Below, piece after piece: positions 10,092 to 54,122 of a stretch of DNA of 54,122 nucleotides (position 1 is the first letter of the stretch; each line of letters begins with the position of its first letter). Under the pieces are notes generated by a model. That model did no database searches, was not told the origin of the DNA, and was given only the letters and a program-made list of their open reading frames with translations. The DNA is from a virus. Its lineage: Duplodnaviria > Caudoviricetes. Where the stretch lies: IMG/VR virus record IMGVR_UViG_3300025674_000055, positions 1 through 54,122 of that record. One strand, written 5' to 3'. The position numbers were made by a program, and so were the translations under genes.

Positions 10092-10101
10092 TACACATAA
10101 G

Positions 10102-36249: not shown

Positions 36250-36265
36250 TTAAAGTATGACAGAG

Positions 36266-36296: not shown

Positions 36297-36359
36297 AGTA
36301 TGTTATAACTACTCCTGTTGGACCATCTGGTCCTTATGTATACACAACAGGAGTTAAAA

Positions 36360-37465: not shown

Positions 37466-37466
37466 A

Positions 37467-37712: not shown

Positions 37713-37723
37713 TTGAGGGTGCT

Positions 37724-38191: not shown

Positions 38192-38218
38192 TTATACTAG
38201 TTGCAGGGAAGTTTAAAT

Positions 38219-38491
38219 ATGACCACTGAACAATGGCCCCTTACAAAATCTGTACCTTTAACTTTTATTTTTGCTATACTTTTGCAAACAATGACTCTTG
38301 TTTGGTTTATTGCAAATCTGAATAGTAACGTTGAAGATAATGCCAGAGAGATTGTGCGACATGAAACACGCATTCAATCTCTTGAAACAGCAGTTCAAAG
38401 CCAAGCCGTTGCAGTGGCTCGTATGGATGAAAACATTCAAGCTATCCGCAGTATGATTGAGAATCTTGTCAGAGAACAGACAAGTAGATGA
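38219..38491 (+). CDS. Membrane coiled-coil protein (lysis cassette)
   Basis: N-terminal TM segment + coiled coil. Confidence 0.65.
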   Translation: MTTEQWPLTKSVPLTFIFAILLQTMTLVWFIANLNSNVEDNAREIVRHETRIQSLETAVQSQAVAVARMDENIQAIRSMIENLVREQTSR

Positions 38492-38661
38492 CGCTGTGTG
38501 TTCTTGTCTTCGTAAGCTATGGACATCTTTTTATAAACAATCAGGGAAGTTGGTTTTACAAATCTTGTTACTATGATTGTGGCACACGGGTACACAGGTG
38601 GTACGACAAAATATACCGTGTAGATTCTCAACACCTTTGCCCGAAGAGCTACTATGATTGA
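38488..38661 (+). CDS. Small Cys-containing protein (57 aa; not in ORF track)
   Basis: MTLCVLVFVSYG...CYYDC...CPKSYYD; ATGA coupling. Confidence 0.6.
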   Translation: MTLCVLVFVSYGHLFINNQGSWFYKSCYYDCGTRVHRWYDKIYRVDSQHLCPKSYYD

Positions 38662-39121
38662 TCCGTTTACAGCCCTGTCCGTAGCGAGTACTGCGGTATC
38701 CCAGATACAACAGCTACTGTCTGCAGGCAGAGATGCTTCGGCTGCTATGTCTAAGTTTGCTGGCGCTGTAAGTGATATTAACTACGCTGCTGAGAGAGCT
38801 AAGAATCCTAGTATATGGAAGACGCTAACTGGAAGTGCTGAATCTGAAGCCATAGAATTATTTACTGCACAGAAAAAAGTGCAGGATATGCGCCAACAGA
38901 TAGAGACCATGATTGGTTATACTTATGGTGAAAAGGGTTTGGCTGAGTACAAAGAAACCCTACGTAGAGTTAAGAAGCAACGAGAGGATACTGTCTACAG
39001 AAAGCAGAAGATAAAGGAAGCTTTGTTATTGTGGACAGTTGGAGTCCTTGCTACGCTTGCTGGTACTGCTGGATTAGTGGCTGTAGTATATTTTCTTGGC
39101 ATTCAGCAAGGAAAGTGGTAA
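38654..39121 (+). CDS. Membrane protein
   Basis: MIDPFTA start, coiled coil, C-terminal TM segment. Confidence 0.75.
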   Translation: MIDPFTALSVASTAVSQIQQLLSAGRDASAAMSKFAGAVSDINYAAERAKNPSIWKTLTGSAESEAIELFTAQKKVQDMRQQIETMIGYTYGEKGLAEYKETLRRVKKQREDTVYRKQKIKEALLLWTVGVLATLAGTAGLVAVVYFLGIQQGKW

Positions 39122-39122
39122 G

Positions 39123-39395
39123 ATGAAGATAACACCTGAATGGCTAGACAAGTGGCGCATCTGGCCTCGTATGATTATCACTCTGTATGGTCTTGCGTTT
39201 TATCAGACAACAAACTGGTTTATGAACCTATCTGATCCTACGAATGCTCAAGCTGGTTTTGTGTCTGTTGTAGTTGGAGCAGGTGCAGGTTTCTTTGGAA
39301 TATATGTGAATGGCAGAAATACTCACACGATTAATCACACGTCTAACTCCACTGAGACTTCTACTCGTTCTAGTTCTAGTGAGTATGACCGCTAG
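39123..39395 (+). CDS. Putative holin (2 TM)
   Basis: WRIWPR + two hydrophobic segments, in lysis cassette. Confidence 0.6.
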   Translation: MKITPEWLDKWRIWPRMIITLYGLAFYQTTNWFMNLSDPTNAQAGFVSVVVGAGAGFFGIYVNGRNTHTINHTSNSTETSTRSSSSEYDR

Positions 39396-39711
39396 TTGTT
39401 CTGCCATTAACCCATTGGGTTTTTTATCTGGTGGTACTAATGTAGCGGCAAATACACAACTAGGTAAAACAAATACACAAACACTTGGTACAACTAATAA
39501 TACAGACGCAGGAATTAAAGCTACGGGTGATGTAGAAAATATCAACCAAGACTTCGACTCTGGTAACAAAGTAGCAACAGACAGAGTTGACAACCTTACC
39601 ATTAATGAAATACCTGTTTGGGTTATTTTGCTTTTAATCTTAGGGTGGCTGCTACCAACTCCAACACAAATTGGGCAAGGAATTTTAAACTTGTTCCGTA
39701 GAAAAAAATAG
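39310..39711 (+). CDS. Putative unimolecular spanin
   Basis: Hydrophobic signal + lipobox-like TASC, beta-rich middle, C-terminal TM segment and basic tail. Confidence 0.7.
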   Translation: MAEILTRLITRLTPLRLLLVLVLVSMTASCSAINPLGFLSGGTNVAANTQLGKTNTQTLGTTNNTDAGIKATGDVENINQDFDSGNKVATDRVDNLTINEIPVWVILLLILGWLLPTPTQIGQGILNLFRRKK

Positions 39712-39719
39712 GATACACT

Positions 39720-40097
39720 ATGTCTAGACAACTTACAGATAAACAGAAAAAGTTCTTGGACGTTCTGTTTGAAGAGGCAGGAGGCGATGTTCCTACTGCT
39801 AAACGTCTTGCTGGTTATTCTGATGCCACGTCTAGTACAGAAGTAGTAGCCTCTTTGAAAGAAGAAATCATTGACGCTACCCATATGTACATGGCACGTA
39901 ATGCGCCGAAAGCTGCTATGTCTATGGTTGGTGCGCTTTATGATCCTACTGAACTTGGTATTCGGGATAAGATGGCAGCAGCCAAAGAGCTTCTGGATCG
40001 CACAGGTCTTGTAAAGACTGAGAAGGTTCAGGTCGAAGCAAAGGGTGGCGTTATGTTGATGCCAGCCAAAAACCCAACAGAAGAAGATGATGACTAA
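39720..40097 (+). CDS. terS: Terminase small subunit (putative)
   Basis: LTDKQKKFL...A..LAGYS HTH pattern; AAKELLDR. Confidence 0.75.
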   Translation: MSRQLTDKQKKFLDVLFEEAGGDVPTAKRLAGYSDATSSTEVVASLKEEIIDATHMYMARNAPKAAMSMVGALYDPTELGIRDKMAAAKELLDRTGLVKTEKVQVEAKGGVMLMPAKNPTEEDDD

Positions 40098-40524
40098 GAA
40101 AACAGGAACATGGAAGCTTCCTCAACCCACCGACATTAAAGAGGATAATGAATGGGTTCCTATTCCTCGTATATCTAGGACAGTACCATTTGGTTACTCA
40201 GTTGATCCAGATGATGAGTATGTGCTGCTACCAATTCAAAGTGAATTAGATCTGCTTGAGAAGGCTAAAGAGTATCTTAAGCAATATTCATATAGAGAAG
40301 TGGCACATTGGCTTACTAGAAATACAGGGCGATATATTTCGCATGTAGGTTTAAAGAAGCGATTGGATAATGAGCGAAGAAGAAAAAACAAAGCTGGAAG
40401 CCTTCGCAGATGGGCAAACTATGCGGAAAAGGCAATCGCCAAGGCGCATGAAATTGAACAGAAGAGACTCGACGCAAAAGCCCAGCAACTCAGTTCCAGC
40501 GAAACCGAAAGCAGAGCCAGCTAA
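40087..40524 (+). CDS. Hypothetical HTH-containing protein
   Basis: PFGY...SYREVA.WL...GR.ISH.GL. Confidence 0.7.
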   Translation: MMTKKTGTWKLPQPTDIKEDNEWVPIPRISRTVPFGYSVDPDDEYVLLPIQSELDLLEKAKEYLKQYSYREVAHWLTRNTGRYISHVGLKKRLDNERRRKNKAGSLRRWANYAEKAIAKAHEIEQKRLDAKAQQLSSSETESRAS

Positions 40525-41962
40525 AATTGTTGAATCAACTCCAGATGAATTGGCGGTTGAAGAAGCACACAACGTAATCTTTAAGCCTAACCCCGGTCCT
40601 CAGACTGAGTTCTTGGCTGCAAGTGAAAGAGAAGTGTTATATGGCGGAAGTGCTGGTGGCGGTAAGTCTTATGCTATGTTGGCTGACCCTCTTCGTTACA
40701 TGGGGCACCCAGCGTTTAGCGGCCTACTCCTACGTCACACGACAGAAGAATTAAGGGAACTTATCTTCAAGTCGCAAGAGATGTATCCCAAAATCTGGCC
40801 CGGTATTAAGTGGTCAGAAAGAAAAATGCAGTGGACTGCGCCATCTGGTGCAAGGTTGTGGATGTCCTACCTTGACAGGGATGAGGATGTCTTGCGTTAT
40901 CAGGGTCTGGCATTTAGCTGGATAGGCTTTGACGAATTAACTCAATGGGCCACACCATATGCATGGAATTACATGCGGTCTCGTCTACGGTCCACTGCAC
41001 CTGATCTTCCTATCTTTATGAGGGCTACGACTAACCCCGGAGGTAGAGGGCATCACTGGGTTAAAAAAATGTTTATTGATCCTGCGCCTGCAGGTAGTAC
41101 ATTTGATGCTACGGATATTGAAACTGGTGAAGTTCTTAAGTACCCTATAGGTCATAGTAAAGCAGGTAAGTCTCTTTTTAAACGTAGGTTTATTCCTGCT
41201 AGACTTTCTGACAACCCATACCTTGCTGCTCAGGGTGACTATGAAGCAATGCTTCTGTCTCTTCCTGAACAACAAAGACGCCAGCTTCTTGAAGGTGATT
41301 GGGATATTAAAGAAGGTGCAGCGTTTACTGAGTTTGACAGAACTATACATGTAATAGAACCATTCAAGATTCCGTCCAACTGGGTTAAGTTTAGAGCAGC
41401 AGACTATGGTTACGGTTCTCATAGTGGAGTACTTTGGTTTGCTGTATCCCCAAGTGAACAATTGATTGTTTACAGAGAATTGTATGTTAGTAGAGTCCTT
41501 GCTACCGATCTTGCAGATAGGGTATTGCAGCTTGAGGCAGAAGACGGTAATATTAAGTATGGAGTTCTAGACAGTTCTTTGTGGCACAAACGAGGCGATA
41601 CAGGACCGAGTCTAGCAGAACAAATGATTAGTCGTGGCTGCAGATGGAGACCTTCTGACAGATCAAAAGGTTCTCGTGTTGCTGGTAAAAATGAAATACA
41701 TCGTAGGCTGCAGGTAGATGAGTTTACAGAAGAGCCACGTCTAGTGTTCTTCAATAACTGCGTAAACATAATTGCACAGCTTCCAGCTTTGCCGATTGAC
41801 AAAAAGAATCTAGAGGATATTGATACTTCATCAGAAGACCATTTGTATGACGCTCTTAGATATGGCATAATGTCTAGACCAAGGTTTAGTATTTTTGACT
41901 ACGACTCAAGAGGAACTCCGTCAAATGGTATGCGAATGGCAGATCCAGTATTCGGCTATTAA
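40370..41962 (+). CDS. terL: Terminase large subunit (start uncertain)
   Basis: YGGSAGGGKS, FDELT, TTNPGG, ADYG, DHLYDALRY. Confidence 0.95.
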   Translation: MSEEEKTKLEAFADGQTMRKRQSPRRMKLNRRDSTQKPSNSVPAKPKAEPAKIVESTPDELAVEEAHNVIFKPNPGPQTEFLAASEREVLYGGSAGGGKSYAMLADPLRYMGHPAFSGLLLRHTTEELRELIFKSQEMYPKIWPGIKWSERKMQWTAPSGARLWMSYLDRDEDVLRYQGLAFSWIGFDELTQWATPYAWNYMRSRLRSTAPDLPIFMRATTNPGGRGHHWVKKMFIDPAPAGSTFDATDIETGEVLKYPIGHSKAGKSLFKRRFIPARLSDNPYLAAQGDYEAMLLSLPEQQRRQLLEGDWDIKEGAAFTEFDRTIHVIEPFKIPSNWVKFRAADYGYGSHSGVLWFAVSPSEQLIVYRELYVSRVLATDLADRVLQLEAEDGNIKYGVLDSSLWHKRGDTGPSLAEQMISRGCRWRPSDRSKGSRVAGKNEIHRRLQVDEFTEEPRLVFFNNCVNIIAQLPALPIDKKNLEDIDTSSEDHLYDALRYGIMSRPRFSIFDYDSRGTPSNGMRMADPVFGY

Positions 41963-41973
41963 AGGTAAATTAG

Positions 41974-44109
41974 ATGGCAGAAGATAACGAAGTCTTTATC
42001 GAAGATGATGCAATCATTCTTGAAGACACAAAAAATTCTATGGAAGACGACGCAGGTACGAATAATATTATTTCGTATGTAATGGAACGTTATCGTAGAT
42101 CTGAAGATATTCGCAGACAAGATGAGACACGTTGGCTTCGGGCATATAGAAACTATCGTGGTTTGTATGGTCCTGATGTTCAATTTACTGAAGCAGAAAA
42201 GTCTCGTGTTTTTATTAAAGTAACTAAGACAAAAACACTTGCTGCCTATGGTCAGATTGTTGATGTGCTATTTGCAAACAACAAATTTCCGCTTACTGTT
42301 GATCCCACTGAACTTCCAGATGGTGTGGTAGATAGTGTTCACTTTGACCCTCAAGAACCTGAGCAGCTTCGTCAAAGCAACATGGATGAGTTGATAAGCC
42401 CCTATGGTTATCGTAATGATGGTAGAGAAATTCCCAAAGGGGCAACTGCTAAAACGCTACGTGAAAGCATTGGAGCTTTAGCAGAAAAGCTTAGAGATAT
42501 TTCTGGTGTTAAAGAAGGTCCGGGTACTACACCTTCCTCTATTACCTTTGAGCCTGCTATGATTGCAGCCAAAAAGATGCAGAAAAAAATTCAAGATCAA
42601 CTTGAAGAATCTAATGCATCTAAGCACCTTCGTAGCACAGCATTCGAAATGGCACTGTTTGGTACAGGCGTCATGAAGGGTCCGTTTGCGGTAGACAAAG
42701 AATACCCTAGCTGGAATGATGATGGTGAATACGAACCTACCTTTAAAACAGTTCCTCAAGTATCTCATGTTTCTGTGTGGAACTTCTATCCTGATCCTGA
42801 TGCAAGCAATATGGATGAAGCACAGTATGTGATTGAACGACACAAGATGTCTCGCTCACAACTTCGTGCTTTGAAAAAGCGTCCATACTTCCGCTCTTCA
42901 GTTATTGATGATGCTATTTCTTTTGGTGAAAACTATATTAAAAAATACTGGGAAGAAGATCTTGCAGACTACGCACCCGATCAGGGCATTGATCGTTTCG
43001 AAGTTTTGGAATATTGGGGCATGGTTGATGTCCAGATGCTCATTGATTATGGCGTAGATATTCCAAGAGAACTGGAAGAAGTTGATGAATTGCAAGCAAA
43101 CGTTTGGATTTGTAATAACAAAGTCCTTCGTATGGTACTCAATCCTTTTAAGCCCGCACGTATTCCGTTTATGGCCGCTCCCTATGAGCTTAATCCGTAT
43201 TCGTTCTTTGGTGTTGGTATCGCAGAAAATATGGATGACACACAAACTCTAATGAACGGCTTTATGCGTATGGCGGTTGATAATGCTGTTCTATCTGGCA
43301 ACCTGCTTATCGAAGTAGATGAAACTAACTTGGTGCCCGGTCAAGATTTGTCTGTGTATCCCGGTAAAGTATTCCGAAGACAGGGTGGTGCACCGGGTCA
43401 GGCTATCTTTGGTACAAAGTTTCCTAATGTTGCACAAGAAAACTTGCAGCTTTTTGACAAAGCCCGTGTGTTGGCCGATGAGAGCACAGGCTTTCCCAGC
43501 TTTGCACATGGACAGACAGGTGTTATGGGTGTCGGCAGAACTGCCAGCGGTATTAGTATGCTAATGGGTGCAGCAAGTGGTACAATTAAAACTGTCATTA
43601 AAAACGTAGACGACTATCTTCTTCGTCCTTTGGGTGAAGGTCTGTTCCGTTTCAATATGCAGTTTGACTTTGATCATACCATTAAGGGTGATCTTGAAGT
43701 CAAAGCTCGTGGTACAGAAAGCTTGATGGCAAATGAAGTACGCAGCCAGCGTCTCATGCAGTTTTTGCAAGTTGCAAGCAATCCTGCTCTTGCGCCCTTT
43801 GCAAAATTCCAGTATATTATTAGAGAGATTGCTAAGTCTCTTGAACTTGATCCCGATAAAGTTACCAACGACATTAATGAGGCAGCAATTCAAGCTGAGC
43901 TTATGAAAGGTTTCCAACAAGAGCAAGCTCAGCAACAGGGTGGAGCACCAGCAGGTGCTAATCCGATGGATATGACAGGAGCAGGCGGTGGTACTATTGG
44001 TACTGGCGCTGTTCCAATGCCGCAAGAAGAAGGGTTCAGTGGTAATGCAGGACAAGAACAGCCTCAACCAACTCAAGGGGTTGGTCAGCAACCAAGCCCA
44101 ATGGGCTAA
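41974..44109 (+). CDS. Portal protein
   Basis: 711 aa after TerL; FYPDP, RTASG.SML, Q-rich tail. Confidence 0.9.
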   Translation: MAEDNEVFIEDDAIILEDTKNSMEDDAGTNNIISYVMERYRRSEDIRRQDETRWLRAYRNYRGLYGPDVQFTEAEKSRVFIKVTKTKTLAAYGQIVDVLFANNKFPLTVDPTELPDGVVDSVHFDPQEPEQLRQSNMDELISPYGYRNDGREIPKGATAKTLRESIGALAEKLRDISGVKEGPGTTPSSITFEPAMIAAKKMQKKIQDQLEESNASKHLRSTAFEMALFGTGVMKGPFAVDKEYPSWNDDGEYEPTFKTVPQVSHVSVWNFYPDPDASNMDEAQYVIERHKMSRSQLRALKKRPYFRSSVIDDAISFGENYIKKYWEEDLADYAPDQGIDRFEVLEYWGMVDVQMLIDYGVDIPRELEEVDELQANVWICNNKVLRMVLNPFKPARIPFMAAPYELNPYSFFGVGIAENMDDTQTLMNGFMRMAVDNAVLSGNLLIEVDETNLVPGQDLSVYPGKVFRRQGGAPGQAIFGTKFPNVAQENLQLFDKARVLADESTGFPSFAHGQTGVMGVGRTASGISMLMGAASGTIKTVIKNVDDYLLRPLGEGLFRFNMQFDFDHTIKGDLEVKARGTESLMANEVRSQRLMQFLQVASNPALAPFAKFQYIIREIAKSLELDPDKVTNDINEAAIQAELMKGFQQEQAQQQGGAPAGANPMDMTGAGGGTIGTGAVPMPQEEGFSGNAGQEQPQPTQGVGQQPSPMG

Positions 44110-44260
44110 GTTTGTTGATTACTTAGAATTTGTTATTAGACAACAACATAGAACTATGGAACAATCAGATAGTGTAGATGCTATTAGACGTGCTCAAGGT
44201 GCTATCTATCAACTTCGTAGACTGCAAATGCTTAGAGACGAAGTTCTTAAATCCAGTTAA
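44045..44260 (+). CDS. Conserved small protein after portal
   Basis: RAQG.I..LRRL..LRDEV. Confidence 0.75.
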   Translation: MQDKNSLNQLKGLVSNQAQWAKFVDYLEFVIRQQHRTMEQSDSVDAIRRAQGAIYQLRRLQMLRDEVLKSS

Positions 44261-44271
44261 AGGACAATACA

Positions 44272-46020
44272 ATGTACGAAAAGCAAATGGAACTCTTTGA
44301 GGATGGTGGCCTTATGGAAGAGGGCGGCATGGTAGACGAAGTTTCTGGAAACGATGTACCTCCGGGCAGCAACCGTAAAGAAGTTCGTGATGACATTCCA
44401 GCCATGCTCAGTGAAGGTGAGTTTGTTTTTCCTGCAGATGTAGTTCGTTATTTTGGTCTTGAGCGGTTGATGGAAATGCGGCAACAAGCCAAAATGGGCC
44501 TTAAAAGAATGGAAGAAATGGGTCAGATGGGTAATAGCGAAGAGGCTATTATTCCTGACGATCTGCCATTTACACTTGAAGATTTAGAGTTTGCAGAGCC
44601 ACAAGAGTATAATCAAGGTGGTGTTATCAAAGCACAAGAAGGTGTTTTTGTTGTGCCCTCTAGCTTCAATAATACACAATCATATACATCTACGACTGTT
44701 CCTGCTAGCTCTGTGGTTCCAACTAATACACAAGGCTTTACCACCGGTTACACACCAACTTTTGTAAATCAACCTGACATAACAACAGGCACTACTACAG
44801 ACGATTCAGAAGATACAGACGAACCTTTTGTTCCTGAAGTTAGCGATGTGTATGAGTATAGAAAATATAAGAATACTAGTACTGGTGAAATTAGAGATAT
44901 TGCATTTTATAAGGGTGAGCCTGTTATTCCAATTCCTGACGGTTTTGTTCCATACTCAGAAGATGAAACAACTGAACCTGAAGACGTAACAGATACTAGT
45001 GTTCAAACGGCTCAAGTTTTAGACACAGAAGATAGTAACGATAATTTTGATCCTTCTACGGGCACTCCAACTGGGCAAGAAACTATACCCGTTGGCTCTT
45101 TGTCGAATGAAGATTTGATGAGAAAATTGAATCAATCTCGTATGCTTGCAAGAGCATCTAGTGCAATGGGTGCCGTAATTAATCCTGCCATTGGTGCTGT
45201 TGTTGGCGTTGCAGCAAAAGCAAGATACAATGATCTACTGGAAGAAGCTCAACGAAGAGGTCTTGATACTGGAGACGCTGAACGTATGGGCAGTGTCTTT
45301 GGCGGTGAGTCTAGCTTGTATGAAGGTCTACAGGACTTTAGCGGAGATAAAAAAGTTACATTTGCAGACACGTGGCTTGGAGACTTGCTTGGCTTAGATG
45401 GACAAGCAGGTGTGCAAGGTCCGGGTCTGCAAGCATCTAGACAAGGCGCAAGACGTGGTTCAACTACTACCGCTAGAGCCGTAACATCTACTCCTGCAGT
45501 GGCAGTAGCAGAAACACGTCAACCGTCACAGGCTGCGGCTGCACAAACAGAAGCAAATAGACAGGCTCAAGAAGCTAGTGCAGAGGCAGAAAGACAACGC
45601 CAAGCTGAAGCACAGGCTGAAGCAAATAGACAAGCACAAGAAGCTAGGGCAGAGGCAGAACGTCAACGTCAAGCCGCAGCGCAAGCAGAAGCAAATAGAC
45701 AAGCGCAGGCAGCTAGAGCAGAAGCTGAACGTCAACGTCAGGCTGAGGCACAAGCGGAAGCAAATAGACAAGCACAAGAATCACGTGGCGATGATCGTCC
45801 TGCAAGTTGGGATGGTGGCCGTGTTGCAGAGACACAAAGCAAAACTAGCTACAGTTCTTCGTCCGAAGCAAGAGCAGCAGCAAGTCGTGCAGCAGAACGT
45901 AGTGGTACAGGCATGGCAACAAGAGGTAGAGCCGCAGGTGGTTTTATTACAAAACTTGAAGAACAACCTACAGCTACACCTAAAAAGAAACGTGGTATAG
46001 CAGCACGTAATAAAAAATAA
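44272..46020 (+). CDS. Head-associated protein with DIPAMLSEGEFV domain and a coiled-coil repeat
   Basis: AAGGA RBS; between portal and scaffold. Confidence 0.75.
   Translation: MYEKQMELFEDGGLMEEGGMVDEVSGNDVPPGSNRKEVRDDIPAMLSEGEFVFPADVVRYFGLERLMEMRQQAKMGLKRMEEMGQMGNSEEAIIPDDLPFTLEDLEFAEPQEYNQGGVIKAQEGVFVVPSSFNNTQSYTSTTVPASSVVPTNTQGFTTGYTPTFVNQPDITTGTTTDDSEDTDEPFVPEVSDVYEYRKYKNTSTGEIRDIAFYKGEPVIPIPDGFVPYSEDETTEPEDVTDTSVQTAQVLDTEDSNDNFDPSTGTPTGQETIPVGSLSNEDLMRKLNQSRMLARASSAMGAVINPAIGAVVGVAAKARYNDLLEEAQRRGLDTGDAERMGSVFGGESSLYEGLQDFSGDKKVTFADTWLGDLLGLDGQAGVQGPGLQASRQGARRGSTTTARAVTSTPAVAVAETRQPSQAAAAQTEANRQAQEASAEAERQRQAEAQAEANRQAQEARAEAERQRQAAAQAEANRQAQAARAEAERQRQAEAQAEANRQAQESRGDDRPASWDGGRVAETQSKTSYSSSSEARAAASRAAERSGTGMATRGRAAGGFITKLEEQPTATPKKKRGIAARNKK
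45541..45780 (+). repeat. 69-bp (23-aa) tandem repeat, ~3.5 copies
   Basis: AQxEANRQAQxAxAEAERQRQAx; GAAGCAAATAGACA recurs every 69 nt. Confidence 0.92.
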
Positions 46021-46093
46021 TCTGCTATATTAGACTGGCCTACCCATCCCCCATACCGACATGGCTACGGTGGCCCCAGTAAGGATTTAAAAT

Positions 46094-46957
46094 ATGTCTG
46101 AGAACATGACTATTATGGCTTCTGAAGTAGAAGCACCTAGAAAAGTTGCATTTGCTAATCGCAAGTACACTAATGAAGAACGAATTAAACAAGAAGAAGA
46201 AGAGCTTCAACAATTGATTCAGGAACAACAAGAACCTAAAGAGCAAGTTCAAGAGGAAGCTGAACCCGAATCTGCAGAAGAACGTTCTTTTAAAAAACGT
46301 TATGGTGATCTTCGTAGACATCAGCAGCAAAAAGAAAAAGAATATGAAGATCGTATTGCTCGATTAGAAGAACAGCTTAACAAAGCCACACAACAAGAAA
46401 TTAAACTGCCTAAGTCAGATGATGACATTGAAGCTTGGGCAAAGAAGTATCCTGACGTTGCAGCAATCGTAGAAACAATCGCAATTAAAAAAGCACGTGA
46501 GCAAGCAGAGGGTCTGGAAGCTCGTGTGCGTGAGATTGACGAAATGAAAGCAACTGCCGCACGTGAGAAAGCTGAAGCAGAACTTATGCGTCTGCACCCA
46601 GACTTTGATGAGATTCGTGACAGCGATGACTTCCATCAGTGGGTGGATGATCAACCTAAGTGGGTACAAGATGCGCTGTACGAAAATGATTCGGATGCTA
46701 AGTCTGCAGCTAGAGCCATTGACTTGTACAAAGCTGATAGAAATATCAAAGTTAAAACTACGAGTTCAAAAGATGCTGCATCTTCCGTGAATCCACGGGG
46801 TCGTAGCAAACCTGCTGAAAAAGAAACTTCCAACTACTACAGAGAATCTGCTGTAGCAAAGATGTCTGCTACTCAATATGAAAAAGTTGCAGACGAAATC
46901 ATGGAAGCCATTCGTACTGGTAAATTTATTTACGATTTATCGGGTAGTGCACGTTAA
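46094..46957 (+). CDS. Capsid scaffolding protein
   Basis: Charged coiled coil, FKKRYGDLRRH, HPDF; precedes major capsid gene. Confidence 0.85.
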   Translation: MSENMTIMASEVEAPRKVAFANRKYTNEERIKQEEEELQQLIQEQQEPKEQVQEEAEPESAEERSFKKRYGDLRRHQQQKEKEYEDRIARLEEQLNKATQQEIKLPKSDDDIEAWAKKYPDVAAIVETIAIKKAREQAEGLEARVREIDEMKATAAREKAEAELMRLHPDFDEIRDSDDFHQWVDDQPKWVQDALYENDSDAKSAARAIDLYKADRNIKVKTTSSKDAASSVNPRGRSKPAEKETSNYYRESAVAKMSATQYEKVADEIMEAIRTGKFIYDLSGSAR

Positions 46958-46963
46958 AAAGTA

Positions 46964-46994
46964 TTGACAATACAGTTTACTCACTGTATAACTA
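46964..46994 (+). promoter_or_regulatory. Sigma70-type promoter of the capsid operon
   Basis: TTGACA-N17-TATAACTA. Confidence 0.8.
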
Positions 46995-46999
46995 TATCT

Positions 47000-47219
47000 A
47001 TAGATTTGAGGTTAGACTCCGGTTGGCTACTCTAACCTCTATCACTTTCCCACAAACACATGTCTTTACGGATTACCTAATCCGACTAGGCCCGTATCAC
47101 CTGCAAGCTATAACTGATCATTATATGCTGTAGGCTATACGCACCCTAACACGATTAGCCTCTGAAATAAACCATGTAAGTTTGTATCTGTAAATCCAAG
47201 CTATTATAGGAGAATAACA
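47000..47219 (+). ncRNA. Candidate structured cis-regulatory leader of the major capsid gene
   Basis: Several complementary segments (see findings). Confidence 0.45.
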
Positions 47220-48293
47220 ATGGCATTTGGAGCAGCTTCGGGCTATGGCAACTTGCCGAATGGCAATTTCTCGCCCGTCATTTACAGCAAACAGGTGCAA
47301 CTTGCTTTCCGCAAAGCATCTGTTGTTGACGCAATCACAAACAACGACTACTTTGGCGAAATCGCAAACATGGGCGATACCGTCAAGATCATCAAAGAAC
47401 CTGAAATCACTGTGTCGTCGTACCTGCGTGGTACACAGATCACTGCACAGGATCTGGATGATGAAGACTTCTCGCTGGTTATCGACAAAGCAAACTACTT
47501 TGCATTCAAAGTTGATGACATCGAAGAAGCTCACTCGCACGTGAACTTCCAGTCTCTGGCTTCGGATCGTGCTGCCTATCGTTTGGCTGATCAGTACGAC
47601 CAAGAAGTTCTTGGTTACTTGTCGGGCTATGCTCAGTCGGCTCTTCATGTTAATGCTGACGCAGTGAACACAACTGTGAATGGCACAAAGGCAATCGCAA
47701 CTGCTGGTTCGGACGAACTGCTTGCTTCAATGAAGCTCAATAAGGGTGACTTCGGCAACATCTCGACCTCTTCGGCTGGCGATCATTCGATCCCTGTCGC
47801 TGCTCGTCTGCCGGGTGCAACCACTCTGCCCACAACTCACGTTTCGCCTGTCATGCTGATCAACCGTATGGCTCGTCTGCTGGACCAGCAAAACGTGGAC
47901 AAAGCAGGTCGTTGGCTGGTTGTTGATCCGATCATGATGGAAGTCCTGATGGACGAAGACAGCCGTTTCCTGAACGCTGACTACGGCGATTCGGGTGCTC
48001 TTCGCAATGGTCTGACCCTGAATAACTGGAACGGTTTCCGTGTGTACGTGTCGAACAACCTGCCGAAAGTGGGTGGCGGTGCTGGCACCACGGGTACTGC
48101 AAACCAGAACACCGACTATGGTGTGATTGTTGCAGGTCATGATTCTGCTATTGCAACTGCAGAGCAGATCAACAAAACCGAAACCTACCGTGACCCCGAC
48201 TCGTTTGCTGACGTTGTTCGTGGTATGCATCTGTATGGTCGCAAGATTCTTCGTCCCGAAGCTATTGCGACAGCAAAATACAACCTTGCCTGA
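47220..48293 (+). CDS. Major capsid protein
   Basis: NFSPVIYSK, GDTVKI, FAFKVDDIE, YRDPDSFAD.VRG...YGRK; strongly biased codons. Confidence 0.95.
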   Translation: MAFGAASGYGNLPNGNFSPVIYSKQVQLAFRKASVVDAITNNDYFGEIANMGDTVKIIKEPEITVSSYLRGTQITAQDLDDEDFSLVIDKANYFAFKVDDIEEAHSHVNFQSLASDRAAYRLADQYDQEVLGYLSGYAQSALHVNADAVNTTVNGTKAIATAGSDELLASMKLNKGDFGNISTSSAGDHSIPVAARLPGATTLPTTHVSPVMLINRMARLLDQQNVDKAGRWLVVDPIMMEVLMDEDSRFLNADYGDSGALRNGLTLNNWNGFRVYVSNNLPKVGGGAGTTGTANQNTDYGVIVAGHDSAIATAEQINKTETYRDPDSFADVVRGMHLYGRKILRPEAIATAKYNLA

Positions 48294-48308
48294 TAGGAGG
48301 ACTTAGTT

Positions 48309-48800
48309 ATGGCTACCGTTACTACTCTCGCAGGCGCTGGTGGTGCTTTCTCGACTGCAGGTCGTACCCCCTACGTCATCGACAACATCGTTGACTTCGC
48401 TGCTGCTGTCACCGCTAAGGGTGGCGCACTGGCTCAGGCCGACATCATCGAAGCTCTGGAACTGCCCGCTCAGTGCCAGATTCTTTCGTGTGGTGCAGAG
48501 GTCATTGAAGCCCATGCGGGTACTTCGACTGACCTGACGCTTGACATTGGTATCACTGGCGGTAACACCGACTTTGTTGCTGATGGCTTCGACTACGATG
48601 CTGCTGCTGTTGGCGCTGTGACTTCGCCTGTTGTTGCAGAACTTCCGCTGTACAATGCTTCGGCAGACACGATTGACATTCTGTTGGCTACCATGACTGG
48701 TACGACCACAGGTGGCAAGATGCGTGTTTGGGCTTGCATTGTTCCCGTTGACGGTCGTCAGCAGGAAGCTGCAGAAGTTGTTCGTGATCAACTCGCATAA
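48309..48800 (+). CDS. Putative capsid decoration / minor capsid protein
   Basis: AGGAGG RBS; same codon bias as the major capsid gene; beta-rich. Confidence 0.7.
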   Translation: MATVTTLAGAGGAFSTAGRTPYVIDNIVDFAAAVTAKGGALAQADIIEALELPAQCQILSCGAEVIEAHAGTSTDLTLDIGITGGNTDFVADGFDYDAAAVGAVTSPVVAELPLYNASADTIDILLATMTGTTTGGKMRVWACIVPVDGRQQEAAEVVRDQLA

Positions 48801-48807
48801 TAACGGA

Positions 48808-48831
48808 GGGGGGCTGCTTCGGTGGCCCCCC
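48808..48831 (+). terminator. GC-rich cUUCGg hairpin after capsid genes (no U-tract; leaky terminator or stabiliser)
   Basis: GGGGGGCTGC-TTCG-GTGGCCCCCC. Confidence 0.65.
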
Positions 48832-48839
48832 ACTACTCC

Positions 48840-49235
48840 ATGAGAATACTTCACTCTGAGAAAAAAGTAGAAGGCTTTGAGCACAGAGTTTTTTCTTTGA
48901 ATGAAGTATACTGGAAACTTGATGAGTCTGCAGAGTTAGACTGGAAGTTTCGAGAAGCTTTAGCTAAGTCTCTAGATAAACGTGGGATGCTGTGGCCTCC
49001 TATAGTTTGGAAGCAAGAAACTTTCCTTGTTTATCTAGAAGAGGGTAAACGTAGACACGACCCTTACAAGGCTATAGAAATTGATCTATACTATAGGGTT
49101 GCCATAGGAAACAACAGATTTCACTATGCACAAGAAAAGGGTTACACCCACATAGAGTGTGTTGTAGCCGAAGTTTGGAAAGACAGAGATACCATCCTAA
49201 CTCAGACTGTGATGGAATATAGGAAGGACTACTAG
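48840..49235 (+). CDS. ParB/Sulfiredoxin-like domain protein
   Basis: SL...GMLWPPIV...VAIGNNRF..A...G...IECVV. Confidence 0.55.
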   Translation: MRILHSEKKVEGFEHRVFSLNEVYWKLDESAELDWKFREALAKSLDKRGMLWPPIVWKQETFLVYLEEGKRRHDPYKAIEIDLYYRVAIGNNRFHYAQEKGYTHIECVVAEVWKDRDTILTQTVMEYRKDY

Positions 49236-49237
49236 AC

Positions 49238-49675
49238 ATGGCTATCACAACGGCAATGTGTACAAGCTTCAAGCAGGAGTTGCTTGGTGGTGTTCATGAT
49301 CTGGATACCGACAGCATCAAGCTTGCATTGATTAAAGCTACACCGAGTGGTACTTATGGTGCTGCTACTACGAATTACTCTGATGTAACTGGAAACTCTG
49401 ATGAAGCCAGCGGTACTAACTATTCTGCGGGTGGTCAGGTTCTTGATGGAGCTACCATCTCTGTTTCTGGTACAACTGCTATCGTTGACTTTACTGATGA
49501 AGTCTTTGCTGATGTGACTGTCTCTACGGATGGCTGTATCATCTACAATGCTTCTCAGGGCAACAAGGCTATTGCTGTAATTGACTTTGGTGGCACTGTC
49601 AGTGCTACTGCTGGTGACTTGACTGTTGAGTTCCCTACTGCGGATGCTTCTAACGCTGTGATCCGCATCGCCTAA
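49238..49675 (+). CDS. Virion structural protein
   Basis: MAITTAMCTSFKQELL..H, Y.AGG..L, IDFGG. Confidence 0.75.
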   Translation: MAITTAMCTSFKQELLGGVHDLDTDSIKLALIKATPSGTYGAATTNYSDVTGNSDEASGTNYSAGGQVLDGATISVSGTTAIVDFTDEVFADVTVSTDGCIIYNASQGNKAIAVIDFGGTVSATAGDLTVEFPTADASNAVIRIA

Positions 49676-49690
49676 TAGAAGGTAGCGGCT

Positions 49691-50461
49691 ATGGCTGTCA
49701 CTGTCAATGCAGCGGTCTATGGTGTAGCAGTATATGGTGTTGCCAGATACGGCAAGATCATTGTCAGCAACCTAGACCAAGCAACAGCCACTGGTCAAGT
49801 AAATGCAGTACAGGTTAATCTTTCTGTAACGCTTGCAAGTGTAGTAGCAACTGGTTCTGTAGAAAGTCTGACTGCTGGTGGCTTTGAAGTAGACATCACT
49901 GAAAAAATTCCCACTGGTATTTTTGCTACAGGTCAAGTTTCTGCGGTACAAGTTAATCCAACGGAAAAGGTAACTGGTGTTGCTGGTTCTGGTCAGACAG
50001 GTGATCCTGTTGTAACAGCCTCCAGTAATATAGTTTCTGCCAGTGTCTTTTCTACAGGCTCTGTTGAAGCTGTACAAGAAAATGTCAGCGAAAAACTTGG
50101 GTCTGTAACTGCTACAGTAAATATCAACGCAGTACAAGTAAACGTCACTGAGATACTTGCTTTTGTTGCATCTACTGGCAGTATTGGTACGCTGACATTT
50201 AGTAACACTGTTACCCCCACAGGTGTTCAGGCACAGGGTGTTATTAACAGTGTTGAGCCTAAGCCTACTGAAGCTCTTGGCAGTGTCAGTGCAACAGGTT
50301 TTGTTGGCAACCTAAAACTTAATACGACGGCAGGTATTACCTCAGTTGGCATGACAGGTTCTGTGACAGCGACGACTCAGACTGCCGTAGTGTTTAACTT
50401 TGAGGCTGTTAAAGAGACCTACAGCAGACAGAGAACTATCTACCTTTCGAGGGCTGCATAA
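49691..50461 (+). CDS. Virion structural protein with V/T/G/A repeats
   Basis: Repeated ATG.V.AVQ.N units; YG...YG N-terminus. Confidence 0.7.
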   Translation: MAVTVNAAVYGVAVYGVARYGKIIVSNLDQATATGQVNAVQVNLSVTLASVVATGSVESLTAGGFEVDITEKIPTGIFATGQVSAVQVNPTEKVTGVAGSGQTGDPVVTASSNIVSASVFSTGSVEAVQENVSEKLGSVTATVNINAVQVNVTEILAFVASTGSIGTLTFSNTVTPTGVQAQGVINSVEPKPTEALGSVSATGFVGNLKLNTTAGITSVGMTGSVTATTQTAVVFNFEAVKETYSRQRTIYLSRAA

Positions 50462-50631
50462 TGGCTACAACCAGTGCAGAAAGAACTGTCAGAATTACTG
50501 ATGAGAATAGAGTGGTTTTAATAGTTGACTTCTCTCAGAATCGCAGGGTCTACATCCCTAAAGAAAACAGGACAGTTATTGTCGTTGATCGCAAGACAAC
50601 ATCTGCAGATCGCACAGTAAACGCAGTATAG
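50461..50631 (+). CDS. 56-aa repeat peptide (not in ORF track)
   Basis: MATTSAERTVRI..ENRVV...NRRVYI..ENRTV...TTSADRTV; GAGGG RBS. Confidence 0.65.
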   Translation: MATTSAERTVRITDENRVVLIVDFSQNRRVYIPKENRTVIVVDRKTTSADRTVNAV

Positions 50632-50640
50632 GACACTTAG

Positions 50641-50961
50641 ATGAGCTACCGCTGGCCGAATAAAGATCCTGATGAAACACTTGACTACAGCATTGACTGG
50701 TCAAGATTCTTGGGTACTGGTGTAACTGTCACATCTGCTCAGTGGTACGTTGATGACGCTTCTGGTGTTAAGACTGCCATCAATGCAGGACAGACTGTCA
50801 ACAGCATTCAGAATGTGTCTCAGACCAATAACTCTACTGTTACTACTATCAACATTGGTAGTGGGACAAACAACGTAGAATACAAGTTCTACTGCAGAAT
50901 TACAGACAGTTCTGGCAGTCAGGCAGAGAGAGTTGTCAAACTTCGGATCAAGGAGAGATAA
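50641..50961 (+). CDS. Fiber-tail adaptor-like protein
   Basis: WPNKDPDE.LDYSIDW. Confidence 0.7.
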   Translation: MSYRWPNKDPDETLDYSIDWSRFLGTGVTVTSAQWYVDDASGVKTAINAGQTVNSIQNVSQTNNSTVTTINIGSGTNNVEYKFYCRITDSSGSQAERVVKLRIKER

Positions 50962-51684
50962 ATGGCGTATGATTTCCTTGGCCTTGTAAATGATATCAAC
51001 AAGAGACTTAACGAAGTTGAGTTGACCTCTGCTAACTTTGCTACTGTTACTGGTTTTTACAGTGCAGCAAAAGACTCTGTGAATGCCTCACTGCGTTATA
51101 TCAACCGGTCTGCATTTGAGTGGCCGTTCAATCATGTTGAACAGGAAGACGTTCTGACTGCAGGTGAGATTCGCTACGGCTATCCTGCTGATACAAAGAC
51201 AGTTGACTTTGACTCTTTCAGAATTAAACGGTCTTCTACATTTGGTAATGAAACTCAGAAGCTGAAGATCATTTCCTACGAAGAATATTTGGGAAGATAT
51301 GTAGACGATGAGTACAACACTAGTAACACTGGCATTCGTACTATTCCTCGCCTAGTCTTTCGTACTCCAAATCAAGGCTATGGTGTATATCCTGCACCTG
51401 ACAATGCCTATGAGTTAGTCTACGAATACTACAGACTTCCTGTTGACCTGATCGGTGCTACAGACGTTCCCAGCATTCCTGAGCAGTTCCGTTATGTGAT
51501 CATCGACGGTGCAATGTATCATGCCTATTTGTTCCGTGGTAATACTCAGGATGCTAGTATTCAGTTTCAAAGATTTGAAGAGGGTATCAAAGACATGAGA
51601 ACCCTTTATATCAACAGGTACGACTACGTGAGAGATACCCGTATCTTGGGTGGTGGTTATATCTCTAATCCTAGAGTTGCTTAA
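50962..51684 (+). CDS. Head-tail adaptor (tail tubular protein A-like)
   Basis: FLGLVN....RLNEV, EWPF, P.PD..Y...YEY. Confidence 0.8.
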   Translation: MAYDFLGLVNDINKRLNEVELTSANFATVTGFYSAAKDSVNASLRYINRSAFEWPFNHVEQEDVLTAGEIRYGYPADTKTVDFDSFRIKRSSTFGNETQKLKIISYEEYLGRYVDDEYNTSNTGIRTIPRLVFRTPNQGYGVYPAPDNAYELVYEYYRLPVDLIGATDVPSIPEQFRYVIIDGAMYHAYLFRGNTQDASIQFQRFEEGIKDMRTLYINRYDYVRDTRILGGGYISNPRVA

Positions 51685-53660
51685 TGCCTACACAGTGGCA
51701 GACATTTCCTGTTGAGATGCGGGGTGGGTTGATTACCAATGTCAGCCCCCTTCAGCAAGGTATAAACTTTCCGGGTTCTGCACGATCCTTGACAAACTTT
51801 GAGCCTTCTATTGAGGGTGGCTATCGTCGCATTGAAGGCTACAACAAGTTTGATGAAGATCCTGTTCCTCTGTATGGTGAACCTGTTGTTCAGGGTAGTG
51901 GTCAAACAGGTACATCTCTTGTTCTTGCCAATATCTTTGTTACTCCTGTAAATGGTGATACTCTCACGATTACTGGTGTAACAGGTACATACACAGTATC
52001 TTCAGTAACCTTTGATTCTAACGCAAAGACTGCAACACTTACTCTGTCTACGTCCTTGGATAGCTCTCCTGCAGACAAAGCAGCAGTCACTTTTACGAAC
52101 AACACAGTAGACTTGATTGAATGCATTATCTACTTCAAGCAGAAGGCTGTTGCATATCGTAATGCAGACTTGTGGGAATCGTCTGGCACTGGCTGGACTA
52201 GGATCAACACACCTGACTATGGCACTGTTCTTGTTGATGGTGGTAGTCAGACTGGTACAACTCTCAATGTTGATGGACTGACAGCTACACCTCAGATTGG
52301 TGACACATTTACTGTCGCTGGCATTGAGAAGGTTTATACGATCACCAATGCAGTTACTGTGACTAATGGTGATGCAGCACTGACAATCAGCCCAGCACTG
52401 GCTACATCACCTGCAGACAATGCTGCTGTGACATTCTTAAGTACAGACCGCAGTGCTGGTGGCAAGCATCGCTTTGTGCGATACAACTTTACTGGCACTT
52501 CTCGCATCATGGTTGTTGACGGTACGAATGCACCCTGCAAGTATGATGGTACAACTTTTACAGTTTTGGATGCAGCACCCTCAGATGTTGTTGGGGCTGA
52601 TCACGTAAAAGAATTTAAAAGCCACTTGTTCTTTGCTAAGGGCAATCAGCTTACCTTTACTGCACCCTATACAGACTCCGACTTTAGTGCTGCTAATGGT
52701 GCTGGTGTAATCACTATCCCTCACACGATCACTGGTTTGATTGTTTTCCGTGAGCAGTTGATTATCTTCAGCACCAGCAAGATTCACAGACTGGTTGGAA
52801 ATACGATATCTGACTTTACGCTTCAACCGATTTCACTTGACATTGGTTGCGTAAGAGAGGATACTATACAGGAAGTTGGTGGTGACATTGCATTCCTTGG
52901 GCCTGACGGTGTTAGGCTTCTGAGTGCAACTGATCGCATTGGTGACTTTGGTTTGGCTGTGGCATCAAGACCTATTCAGTCTGAAGCTAACAGACTTGTC
53001 AGTGCCAACACCAGCTTCGCATCCTGTGTTATTAGATCCAAGAACCAGTATCGTATGTTTGGTTACTCTGCCAGTGTAACAGAGGATTCTGCTGCAGGCA
53101 TTCTAGCCACACAGTTTGCAGACCAGACTGCTCAGGGTATGGCATGGGCAGAGACTCGTGGCATACTGGTGTATGTTGCAGACAGTGTATACTCCAGTGA
53201 GGCTCAGGGTGAGGTCATCATCTTTGCCAACAGGGATGGTTACGTATACAGAATGGAATCAGGCAATAGCTTTGATGGTGACATGATTAGAGCATTTTAC
53301 TCCACTCCATTCGTTGCAGTATCTGATCCAAGGCTTAGAAAGACTTTCTATAAGCTGACAACCTATCTGGACCCTGAAGGGTCTATTACAGGTACAGTGA
53401 CACCCAAGTTAGACTTTGATGAACCTAACCTTGCTCAACCCCAGCCTATCGCACTGACGAATACAACAGGGGTTGCATCGTTCTACGGGGTTAGCACATA
53501 CGGTACAGGGATATTCGGGGGCAAACTAAGATATGCTTTCACAAGTCAACTCGTAGGCTCTGGTTTTACATTTAGTCTTCAGTATGTCTTTGAAAGCACT
53601 GATCCTCCATTTTCACTAGACGCAATCACCATTGAATTTGCGACAAACGACAGACAGTAA
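51684..53660 (+). CDS. Tail nozzle / DNA stabilization protein
   Basis: GGL, NFEP..GGYRRI.G, beta-propeller-like repeats, two copies of an inserted GSxQTGT..SPAD.AAVTF domain. Confidence 0.8.
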   Translation: MPTQWQTFPVEMRGGLITNVSPLQQGINFPGSARSLTNFEPSIEGGYRRIEGYNKFDEDPVPLYGEPVVQGSGQTGTSLVLANIFVTPVNGDTLTITGVTGTYTVSSVTFDSNAKTATLTLSTSLDSSPADKAAVTFTNNTVDLIECIIYFKQKAVAYRNADLWESSGTGWTRINTPDYGTVLVDGGSQTGTTLNVDGLTATPQIGDTFTVAGIEKVYTITNAVTVTNGDAALTISPALATSPADNAAVTFLSTDRSAGGKHRFVRYNFTGTSRIMVVDGTNAPCKYDGTTFTVLDAAPSDVVGADHVKEFKSHLFFAKGNQLTFTAPYTDSDFSAANGAGVITIPHTITGLIVFREQLIIFSTSKIHRLVGNTISDFTLQPISLDIGCVREDTIQEVGGDIAFLGPDGVRLLSATDRIGDFGLAVASRPIQSEANRLVSANTSFASCVIRSKNQYRMFGYSASVTEDSAAGILATQFADQTAQGMAWAETRGILVYVADSVYSSEAQGEVIIFANRDGYVYRMESGNSFDGDMIRAFYSTPFVAVSDPRLRKTFYKLTTYLDPEGSITGTVTPKLDFDEPNLAQPQPIALTNTTGVASFYGVSTYGTGIFGGKLRYAFTSQLVGSGFTFSLQYVFESTDPPFSLDAITIEFATNDRQ

Positions 53661-53671
53661 GGAACTCTCTA

Positions 53672-54122
53672 ATGGGCACAGGTTACACTCGTAACGATAC
53701 CGTCAACAACATTGCAGATGGTAACGTAATCAATGCTTCCGATCTGGACGGCGAGTTTGACGCAGTTCAGTCAGCATTTGATGCAGCTACTGGACACACA
53801 CATGATGGCACAACTGGTGAGGGCGCACCTATTGAGGTTACTGGCCCTGCACAGGAATATGTGTCAACTGCGACAGAGCTTCGTCCTAAGACGAATAACA
53901 CCTATGACCTTGGCAGTGTATCTCTGCAATGGAAAGACTTGTATGTAGACGGTACAGCCAATCTGGATACTGTAGACATTGACGCTGGTAATATTGATGG
54001 TACGACCATTGGTGGCACTACACCTGCTGCTGGCACATTCACCACTGTGAATGCTACCACAGTAGACACGACCAATATCGAAGTGACAAACATCAAAGCC
54101 AAGGATGGCACTGCTGCAGGTT
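53672..54122 (+). CDS. Tail fiber, N-terminal part (runs off window end, continues at nt 1)
   Basis: MGTGYTRND..NIADG.VI.A...EF, GHTHDG; open to the end of the window. Confidence 0.9.
   Translation, partial: MGTGYTRNDTVNNIADGNVINASDLDGEFDAVQSAFDAATGHTHDGTTGEGAPIEVTGPAQEYVSTATELRPKTNNTYDLGSVSLQWKDLYVDGTANLDTVDIDAGNIDGTTIGGTTPAAGTFTTVNATTVDTTNIEVTNIKAKDGTAAG

Follow-up and report, generated by a model that had tools for sequence, protein, structure and literature searches.

The IMG/VR virus record IMGVR_UViG_3300025674_000055 is complete, at 54,122 bases, and represents a podophage of the HMO-2011/CRP-1 type; it was analysed at its full length and is referred to here as the window. Its major capsid gene is preceded by a structured, non-coding leader that folds as a hairpin followed by a long irregular rod, and this leader is a conserved RNA family of HMO-2011/CRP-type podophages of Alphaproteobacteria. 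That it is a real, widespread and uncatalogued cis-acting RNA is, in our judgement, close to certain. Since its structure is conserved between a conserved promoter and the Shine-Dalgarno (SD) sequence of the capsid gene, it is a very good candidate for a cis-regulatory RNA, and it probably controls the amount of capsid protein that is made. To the full reading, in which the region supplies the major-capsid mRNA with its promoter and with a 5' untranslated leader that acts in cis on capsid expression, we give about even weight. In most relatives a strand of the rod has a second potential partner that includes the SD and, as argued below, this suggests a translational switch.

Promoter and position of the leader

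The capsid gene (47220-48293, 357 aa; phrog_267 major head protein, E 3.5e-68) is separated from the 287-aa gene that precedes it by 262 nt (46958-47219; all features of the leader are on the + strand). Near the upstream end of this gap is a sigma70-type promoter (46964-46994), with TTGACA at 46964-69, a 17-nt spacer, TATAAC at 46987-92 and then a conserved TA. From there it is ~220 nt to the ATG, just where an earlier note on this DNA had placed a consensus promoter and the long leader behind it. The SD sequence (AGGAGA, 47208-13, predicted to be 0.71-1.00 unpaired) and the start codon (47220-22) close the region. Of 66 distinct spacers, homologues and window together, 65 retain both hexamers, the exception being locus L003 with TATAAT at -10; the promoter spacer and the flanks vary freely. 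These are the marks of a sigma70-type promoter, with -35 and -10 hexamers set 17 ± 1 nt apart and conserved among homologues. (A consensus promoter scan comes out without this site because it demands T at the last -10 position.)

The promoter pattern occurs twice in the window, against 0.03 occurrences expected. The second exact TTGACA-N17-TATAACTA is at 18109-18081 (-), at the end of the DNA polymerase gene, with only ~30 nt to AAGGAG and the ATG at 18052; the same type of promoter therefore also has a short, plain leader. Judged by its sequence, the TTGACA-N17-TATAAC type would be a host-polymerase promoter that the phage uses several times, and it is from sequence that we infer its use and its start site. 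No RNA polymerase or sigma factor is found among the 27 window open reading frames (ORFs) scanned with Pfam, a subset of the total, which agrees with what the earlier note had said of the phage. In one metatranscriptome run a tenth of the sampled words were present, in contigs that come from relatives. A 334-nt contig with 5 differences spans 47088-47343 and so joins leader and capsid start; it carries no end, strand or transcription information.

Conservation of the leader

A capsid-protein search of IMG/VR supplied the homologous loci: the best 80 of more than 600, at 77-87% amino-acid identity. The spacer upstream of the capsid gene is 227-347 nt long in 73 of the 73 homologous loci with a full upstream gene; locus L060, with a 196-nt spacer and a truncated upstream ORF, was excluded from the spacer set. 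Alignments were made with MAFFT and with covariance models, one of which (R1) was built from 20 main-family leaders with the structure proposed below. R1 finds one match per source in 82 of 82 sources, and every match ends at the capsid ATG; the single match in the 54-kb window is at 46997-47222 (48 bits, E 1e-6). HMO-2011, CRP-2, CRP-3 and the freshwater relative MW202701, with capsids 58-74% identical to that of the window, are also matched. The leader of CRP-738 has diverged out of the range of R1, and in relatives with SAR11 or gammaproteobacterial hosts the leader is absent and the spacer is 16-58 nt long. The leaders contain no conserved ORF or leader peptide: the longest ORF has a median of 19 codons and lies in varying places.

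The MW202701 locus (L091) has an unusual arrangement, with an annotated HNH endonuclease gene (515-1084) that separates the scaffold-position gene from the capsid leader; the model matches the rod there at 996-1203 (E 1.3e-5), which overlaps the annotated end of the HNH gene.

The leader belongs to no catalogued Rfam family. Scanning the whole window with Rfam 15 (cmscan) at gathering scores, a search that the earlier note had recommended for the leader, yields only a tRNA (12201-12274), and a permissive scan of 46800-47400 at E <= 10 yields four chance-level snoRNA/CRISPR matches (E 3.4-8.9), at 10-17 bits against gathering scores of 35-45. No published description of the leader was found in the HMO-2011 literature on capsid, promoter or intergenic regions, and the available part of the CRP phage paper (PMC6918029) makes no mention of it.

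Fold and covariation

Anchored alignments and single-sequence folds give one architecture, a 5' hairpin (P1) and then a single long irregular rod composed, from its base, of P2, H2, an NYAC/CC loop, P3, a larger internal loop, P4, a CC/CAC loop and the variable hairpin P5. The minimum free energy (MFE) of the window leader is -60 kcal/mol (z = -3.0; 1 of 200 shuffles is as stable), and all of the elements P1-P5 and H2 have a pairing probability (P) of at least 0.92 in the window. The outer stem of P1 (47008-47039) pairs 47008-16 with 47031-39 (P = 0.99; compensatory changes in 7 of 7 modelled pairs) and encloses the loop CU (CC in relatives) opposite CUAC (47027-30) and an inner stem, CC-GGUU-GG. 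P2 joins its 5' strand (alpha, 47052-47062) to its 3' strand (beta, 47173-47185) with P = 0.96-0.98. The next 5' segment (47069-47076) consists of the H2 strand CGGA (47069-72; P = 0.93) and the loop strand UUAC (47073-76), followed by the P3 strand CUAAUC (47077-47082; P = 0.94). These face 47153-47164, which is made up of the P3 strand GAUUAG (47153-58), the loop CC (47159-60) and the H2 strand UCUG (47161-64); H2 is CGGA/UCUG in the window and AAGA/UCUU in most relatives. The distal part of the rod (47087-47148; P >= 0.92) contains P4 (47087-90/47145-48), the loop CC (47091-92) opposite CAC (47142-44), and P5 (47093-47141).

All coordinates and complementarities in the earlier note are accurate, and three of its pairings are parts of this fold. 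Its GAGGTTAGA/TCTAACCTC hairpin (47008-39) is P1, its irregular hairpin at 47093-47140 is P5, and its ACAAAC-ACATG (47052-62) with CATGT..GTTTGT (47173-85) is P2; each has P of at least 0.96 and lies in a helix that shows compensatory changes across 73 distinct homologues. The other two lack support. The proposed pseudoknot between TTTACGGAT (47065-73) and ATCTGTAAA (47186-94) joins complementary segments and has P = 0.00 in a folding model that cannot score pseudoknots. Inspection by eye finds no compensatory change for it in the sub-family of the window, the 3' partner AUCUGU staying static when the 5' partner changes; it is missing from L018-type and L027-type leaders, and it competes with H2, which is kept family-wide. 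At most this crossing pairing could belong to an alternative conformer. The local CGGATT/AATCCG hairpin, proposed as its competitor, has P = 0.04 and competes with P3 (47077-82/47153-58), which covaries.

Covariation in homologous leaders, on which the earlier note had made its case depend, is present: 36 of the 40 model pairs have compensatory changes in the covariance-model alignment of 73 distinct sequences. In that structure-fitted alignment 88.4% of the cells at paired positions can pair, against 68.9% in shuffles, and the covariation score is 0.445 against 0.144 (0 of 500 shuffles as high), with controls in which partners were slid giving 0.03-0.08. The unfitted MAFFT seed is also above its controls (87.0% against 76.3% paired; score 0.305 against 0.127). 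P1, P3 and P5 are the strongest helices, with compensatory changes in 11 of 11 pairs of P5 and with, at two pairs of P3, GC:56 AU:16 (154/270) and AU:30 UA:21 (155/269). P2 (model helices 2 and 3) has both-sided changes in 10 of 10 pairs; it is less variable within the main family, and, by eye, sub-groups keep its complementarity with different sequences (GAAC/GUUC, CCAAAC/GUUUGG, GCAAAC/GUUUGC). RNAalifold chooses a local CCUG...YAGG hairpin over P3 and P4 in the main-family seed. That hairpin fails in the AUGG leaders and was rejected, because P4 compensates in just those leaders (AGG/CCU to UGG/CCA) and P3 covaries.

The apical loops of P5 mostly carry a self-complementary tetranucleotide closed by U-A, namely GGCC (~28 of 73), GCGC (13) or GAUC (~12), with others of the GGCA kind; the apex in the window (47112-47122), CUGAUCA, is in the GAUC group. 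The palindrome could reflect loop-loop self-association, a signal at the level of DNA or chance inheritance.

A repeated loop module

An asymmetric internal loop with CC opposite NYAC or CAC occurs three times in the leader. CC is invariant at the two rod sites (73 of 73 leaders) and present at the P1 site in 65 of the 67 leaders that have sequence at this position; CAC stands opposite CC in 70 of 73 distinct leaders, and the H2/P3 loop strand is NYAC family-wide. The P1 and rod modules are one motif (helix, CC, a UCU...AGA helix, NYAC, helix), which is closed as a hairpin in P1 and circularly permuted in the rod. The rhizobiophages RHph_N3_13 and phiM6, with capsids 55-57% identical to that of the window, have no rod, and carry two modules nested in one hairpin; in CRP-738, AC replaces CC in both modules. 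The window contains no P1-like hairpin elsewhere: the covariance model R3, run with filters off, matches P1 only (27.2 bits, E 1.8e-5), the next match having E >= 1. We take the module to be the functional core of the leader, and the fact that it is repeated hints more strongly than anything else at a binding partner.

At least 50 of the 73 leaders have ...AAGUA, and in most relatives AGUA on the 5' side and GAA on the 3' side flank P4. AGUA opposite GAA, in the same orientation, is what we take to be the consensus of the sarcin-ricin or loop E (bulged-G) motif. The likeness in most relatives is one of sequence pattern, and the motif is missing from the window and its sub-family, which have CCGAC / ACACG.

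An alternative fold that closes the Shine-Dalgarno sequence

In the main family the 3' strand of the rod (typically CC-UCUU...GGU-GUUUAG-CUUU) can pair instead with a downstream segment and the SD, the downstream segment resembling the 5' strand of the rod. The counterpart of 47153-47164 in these relatives is an anti-SD-like strand, CCUCU(U), that is predicted to pair with GGAGG. The SD-closing fold is the MFE structure in single-sequence folds of the main family, and RNAalifold picks CCUCU/GGAGG; it is also the MFE structure in CRP-2, RHph_N3_13 and phiM6. Partition functions predict for 49 of 65 leaders that the beta segment is paired downstream and that the SD is paired, the SD nearly always with P >= 0.9. 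When rod and closed form were each forced, the closed form was favoured by a median of 6.6 kcal/mol and the two lay within 5 kcal/mol of each other in 24 of 63 leaders, the forced pairs being taken from the model alignment and being poor for divergent leaders. On its own fitted alignment of 49 distinct main-family sequences, compensatory cells number 16 for the alternative hairpin and 4.2 for shuffles (0 of 500 shuffles have as many). At the start site of CRP-3, AGGAGAAC is complementary to the 3' strand of the rod, and the 5' strand of the rod resembles this site.

This alternative in 49 of 65 relatives suggests a translational switch, which might work as follows. Host RNA polymerase would start at the sigma70-type promoter directly after the upstream stop codon, and the first ~220 nt of the transcript would fold into P1 and the rod with its three CC/NYAC-CAC loops. 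The effect of the leader would be in cis, on expression of the capsid gene and most probably at the initiation of translation: with the 3' strand of the rod on its 5' strand the SD would be free, and with the same strand on the downstream copy-like segment and the SD the ribosome site would be closed. A factor recognizing the repeated loop module, a protein or, less probably, a metabolite, would shift the balance. The start of transcription, the switch, its direction and the existence of the factor are thus all putative, in a way that the conservation, position and covarying fold of the leader are not. Drawing on thermodynamic prediction and limited covariation, we consider the question of whether the leader controls capsid translation through competition between rod and SD to be evenly poised.

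Several considerations weigh against it. The alignments of the rod and of the SD-closing hairpin were fitted to the structures being tested and favour them; on the unfitted alignment the SD-closing structure is indistinguishable from shuffles (78.7% against 77.2% paired; 6 pairs with compensatory change against 7.1, a figure reached by 438 of 500 shuffles), most of its pairs being invariant and therefore uninformative for covariation. The excess of G-U cells (137) over A-C cells (108) is modest, so that pair counts alone do not fix the strand. Sixteen of the 65 leaders, that of the window included, pair the beta segment upstream, and HMO-2011, CRP-3 and CRP-738 form the rod. The window itself has P >= 0.92 for the rod and P = 0.00 for the alternative hairpin (a possible P6 at 47179-47202, AGUUUG 47179-84 with CAAGCU 47197-202, which excludes P2), its SD being predicted open as stated above. 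No switch is predicted for the window phage, and the open rod form is predicted to be dominant there. Capsid protein is needed at very high levels of expression, so that an SD closed by default requires an activator, hypothetical so far; and comparison of the window ORFs with five phages singles out no binding factor or RNA-binding domain by gene content. The earlier note had proposed a cis-regulatory RNA that times capsid translation, possibly as a switch. The conserved, structured, non-coding leader bears out the first part of that proposal and the second, SD-sequestering partner of the rod 3' strand in most relatives speaks for a switch; the timing is not borne out, and in the window the SD is predicted to be open.

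Six leaders with spacers of 310-347 nt (L006, L008, L010, L032, L057 and L059) have an extra insert of 40-75 nt, with a hairpin of its own, between the rod 3' strand and the AAGCC...SD segment; the segments of the switch are therefore separated in some lineages.

Other explanations of the leader

The leader may instead be an element of mRNA processing or stability, a site of RNase III or RNase E cutting or a shield of the 5' end, that involves no conformational switch, sets the half-life of the capsid mRNA and separates it from upstream read-through transcripts; we think this unlikely, if well worth keeping in view. The rod is an interrupted duplex of ~30 bp with asymmetric internal loops, and at P >= 0.92 it has the anatomy of an RNase III substrate, an irregular duplex of about two turns interrupted by an internal loop, which is presumably also the general shape of the RNase III sites of phage T7. 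There is no terminator-like site between the upstream gene and the leader, so that longer transcripts probably run through it; P6 could cap the new 5' end left by a cut in the rod; and a stable rod with an open SD is what the window is predicted to have. RNase III needs little sequence, however, and what this explanation does not account for is the invariance of the loop nucleotides (CC in 73/73, CAC in 70/73), which argues for a specific three-dimensional motif or a binder, or the complementarity that the strands opposite the SD and gamma segments keep in most members. P1, moreover, begins ~10-15 nt past the presumed start and is thus not at the 5' end.

A small-molecule riboswitch, in which the P2-closed domain would be a metabolite aptamer and the ligand would hold P2 and H2 together and open the SD, is improbable. 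A conserved domain closed by a helix whose 3' strand overlaps the SD-sequestering alternative is what one expects of such a device, as are invariant unpaired nucleotides and two forms of similar energy (the median of 6.6 kcal/mol, and 24 of 63 leaders within 5 kcal/mol). The domain, however, is a rod, without branches and with a repeated module, and not a junction or a pseudoknot pocket; its apical part (P5) is highly variable in length, and the rhizobiophage versions retain two modules only. Nothing among the Rfam riboswitches matches it even at E <= 10, and no metabolic logic ties a ligand to a capsid gene.

Still less probable is a processive antitermination RNA like put of phage HK022, which would carry the polymerase through the long structural operon. 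The leader does come straight after a conserved promoter, where the late structural genes begin, has two structured units and is present in one copy per genome. Terminator-like sites downstream are not enriched, however (13 against 13.2 expected over 36000-54122, by a simple consensus scan), no convincing terminator follows the capsid gene, and the leader is, by our reckoning, about three times as long as put; its end at the SD, together with the complementarity to the SD that the 3' part shows in most members, favours an action on translation over one on elongation.

A released trans-acting or structural RNA (self-associating, for example, through the palindromic P5 loop), or a hairpin or cruciform signal in the DNA, fits the mostly self-complementary P5 loops (GGCC, GCGC or GAUC) and the small excess of G-U over A-C, and is very improbable in view of the fixed orientation between promoter and SD at every locus, of pairs at which wobble is commonest (GU:23 at 193/236, for instance, which would be C-A on the other strand), of at least 10 P5 loops that are not palindromic (such as those of the GGCA type) and of the lack of any Rfam match to the phi29 pRNA or another family.

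Candidate binding partners

Control of capsid translation by competition between rod and SD would call for a factor that recognizes the loop module. In the comparison of gene content already referred to, CRP-3, phiM6 and RHph_N3_13, which have the leader or its modules, were set against HTVC115P and HTVC033P, pelagiphages that have no leader. ThyX is the only gene found in all three of the former and in neither pelagiphage; RNR, MazG and a cell-wall hydrolase are each weak or missing in one of the three. The genes linked to the leader by content are thus those of nucleotide metabolism and lysis only.

One further lead is a 67-aa ORF of the window (36360-36563, +) with a DUF1127 domain (PF06568; 24.8 bits, cut-off 23.3), the gene that comes first behind a promoter of the TATAACTA type: a promoter-like TTGCAA-N17-TATAACTA lies at 36267-36296 (+), another TATAACTA is 15 nt further on, and downstream CCTGTTG...CAACAGG makes a hairpin that reaches with its 3' arm into the SD of the DUF1127 gene. 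The region 36267-36360 is another leader, the ribosome site of which is covered in part. Of the genomes compared, 9 of 14 with the leader and 0 of 2 without it have a DUF1127 gene, with syntenic copies in CRP-1, CRP-2, CRP-3, CRP-738 and 4 of 5 long IMG/VR relatives. It is missing from HMO-2011, MW202701, phiM6, RHph_N3_13 and one IMG/VR genome, and its absence from five leader-bearing genomes makes it a lead and not a correlate. According to the accessible part of its description, CcaF1 of Rhodobacter sphaeroides, a DUF1127 protein, is RNA-binding (PMC8034643), while the portion available of a report on DUF1127 elsewhere has action between proteins instead (PMC12501420). The notion that an arginine-rich DUF1127 protein, the phage's own or a homologue of the host, binds CC/NYAC in P1 and the rod, locks the rod and so frees the SD is a long shot.

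Relation to known systems

In phage Mu the SD of a late gene, mom, is held in a hairpin, and Com, a small protein of the phage, binds to a structure next to it and makes the site accessible. By analogy, activation of the mom/Com type is the mechanism that we think most likely for the main family. The leader is a much larger RNA and has no sequence relation to that of mom, and no Com-like protein is found among the 27 window ORFs scanned with Pfam.

With translational riboswitches and protein-dependent leader switches the leader shares a conserved domain closed by a helix, the 3' strand of which is predicted in most relatives to pair alternatively with the SD region; it differs from them in its unbranched rod, its thrice-repeated loop and the open form predicted in the window. 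The SD/anti-SD/anti-anti-SD logic of such devices can also be read in the relatives, in which the 5' strand of H2, AAGA, resembles an SD and CCUCU(U) an anti-SD. Phage T7 has RNase III sites and, in its gene 10 leader, an irregular duplex before a podophage capsid gene with a strong promoter upstream. The likeness lies in the irregular duplex with asymmetric loops, the podophage capsid gene and the upstream promoter; the element differs by its host-type promoter, its greater length, the invariant loops, the repeated module and the predicted alternative pairing of the SD in most relatives.

The capsid family PHA00201 is, we believe, the T7-type capsid. Five of the structured RNA candidates that Fremin and Bhatt (2023; PMC10690425) extracted from IMG/VR intergenic regions lie upstream of PHA00201, and the candidates are 29-151 nt long, as given in the available part of that paper. 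Data source and kind of evidence are the same as here, and it is by the published description alone, in that same part, that the leader is set apart; the candidate set may contain pieces of it (PMC10690425).

The locus and other features of the window

Over the stretch from scaffold to leader to capsid gene, the DNA of the window is 74% identical to that of Roseobacter phage CRP-1, and the identity of its capsid protein is 80.7% with the CRP-1 coat protein and 74% with the capsid of Puniceispirillum phage HMO-2011. The order of genes at the locus is portal (41974-44109), a 582-aa ORF, the 287-aa ORF and the major head protein. The 287-aa gene (46094-46957, +), from the ORF list, is in the scaffold position; it matches phrog_13678, a family without assigned function, and has homologues in 5 of 5 phage genomes compared. 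The leader had been described as standing out in an otherwise tightly packed genome. The gap is there, and so are others of 162 nt (44110-44271) and 179 nt (50462-50640), both inside the structural module.

The family A DNA polymerase (18090-20135, -) has an insert of the DnaJ central (CXXCXGXG) zinc-finger type, typical of this phage group. A GC-rich hairpin, GGGGGCC...CCCCC (10099-10129), between a 1202-aa ORF (+) and a convergent MazG-like ORF (-), is probably a two-way terminator. The sole tRNA found by ARAGORN is a tRNA-Arg (12198-12274).

Implications

Phages of the HMO-2011/CRP type have been described, in the parts available of the sources concerned, as abundant marine viruses. Their hosts are hard to grow, and the timing of their late expression is addressed in no literature that was found. 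If the function of the leader were one of stability or processing only, it would be a useful but ordinary addition to the 5' untranslated elements of phages. For RNA biology it is a well-supported, uncatalogued structured RNA with a loop module that appears as a hairpin, circularly permuted in the rod and nested in the rhizobiophages, a design that argues for a dedicated binding partner. Should that partner prove to be a DUF1127 protein, the leader would be a translational 'late' capsid switch for phages without an RNA polymerase or sigma factor of their own, the module would add a new motif for RNA recognition, and this would be the first use by a phage of a DUF1127 RNA-binding protein. In the meantime, late timing in these phages becomes testable through a conserved leader of ~200 nt that precedes the protein they need most, has a host-type promoter and may include an SD switch.

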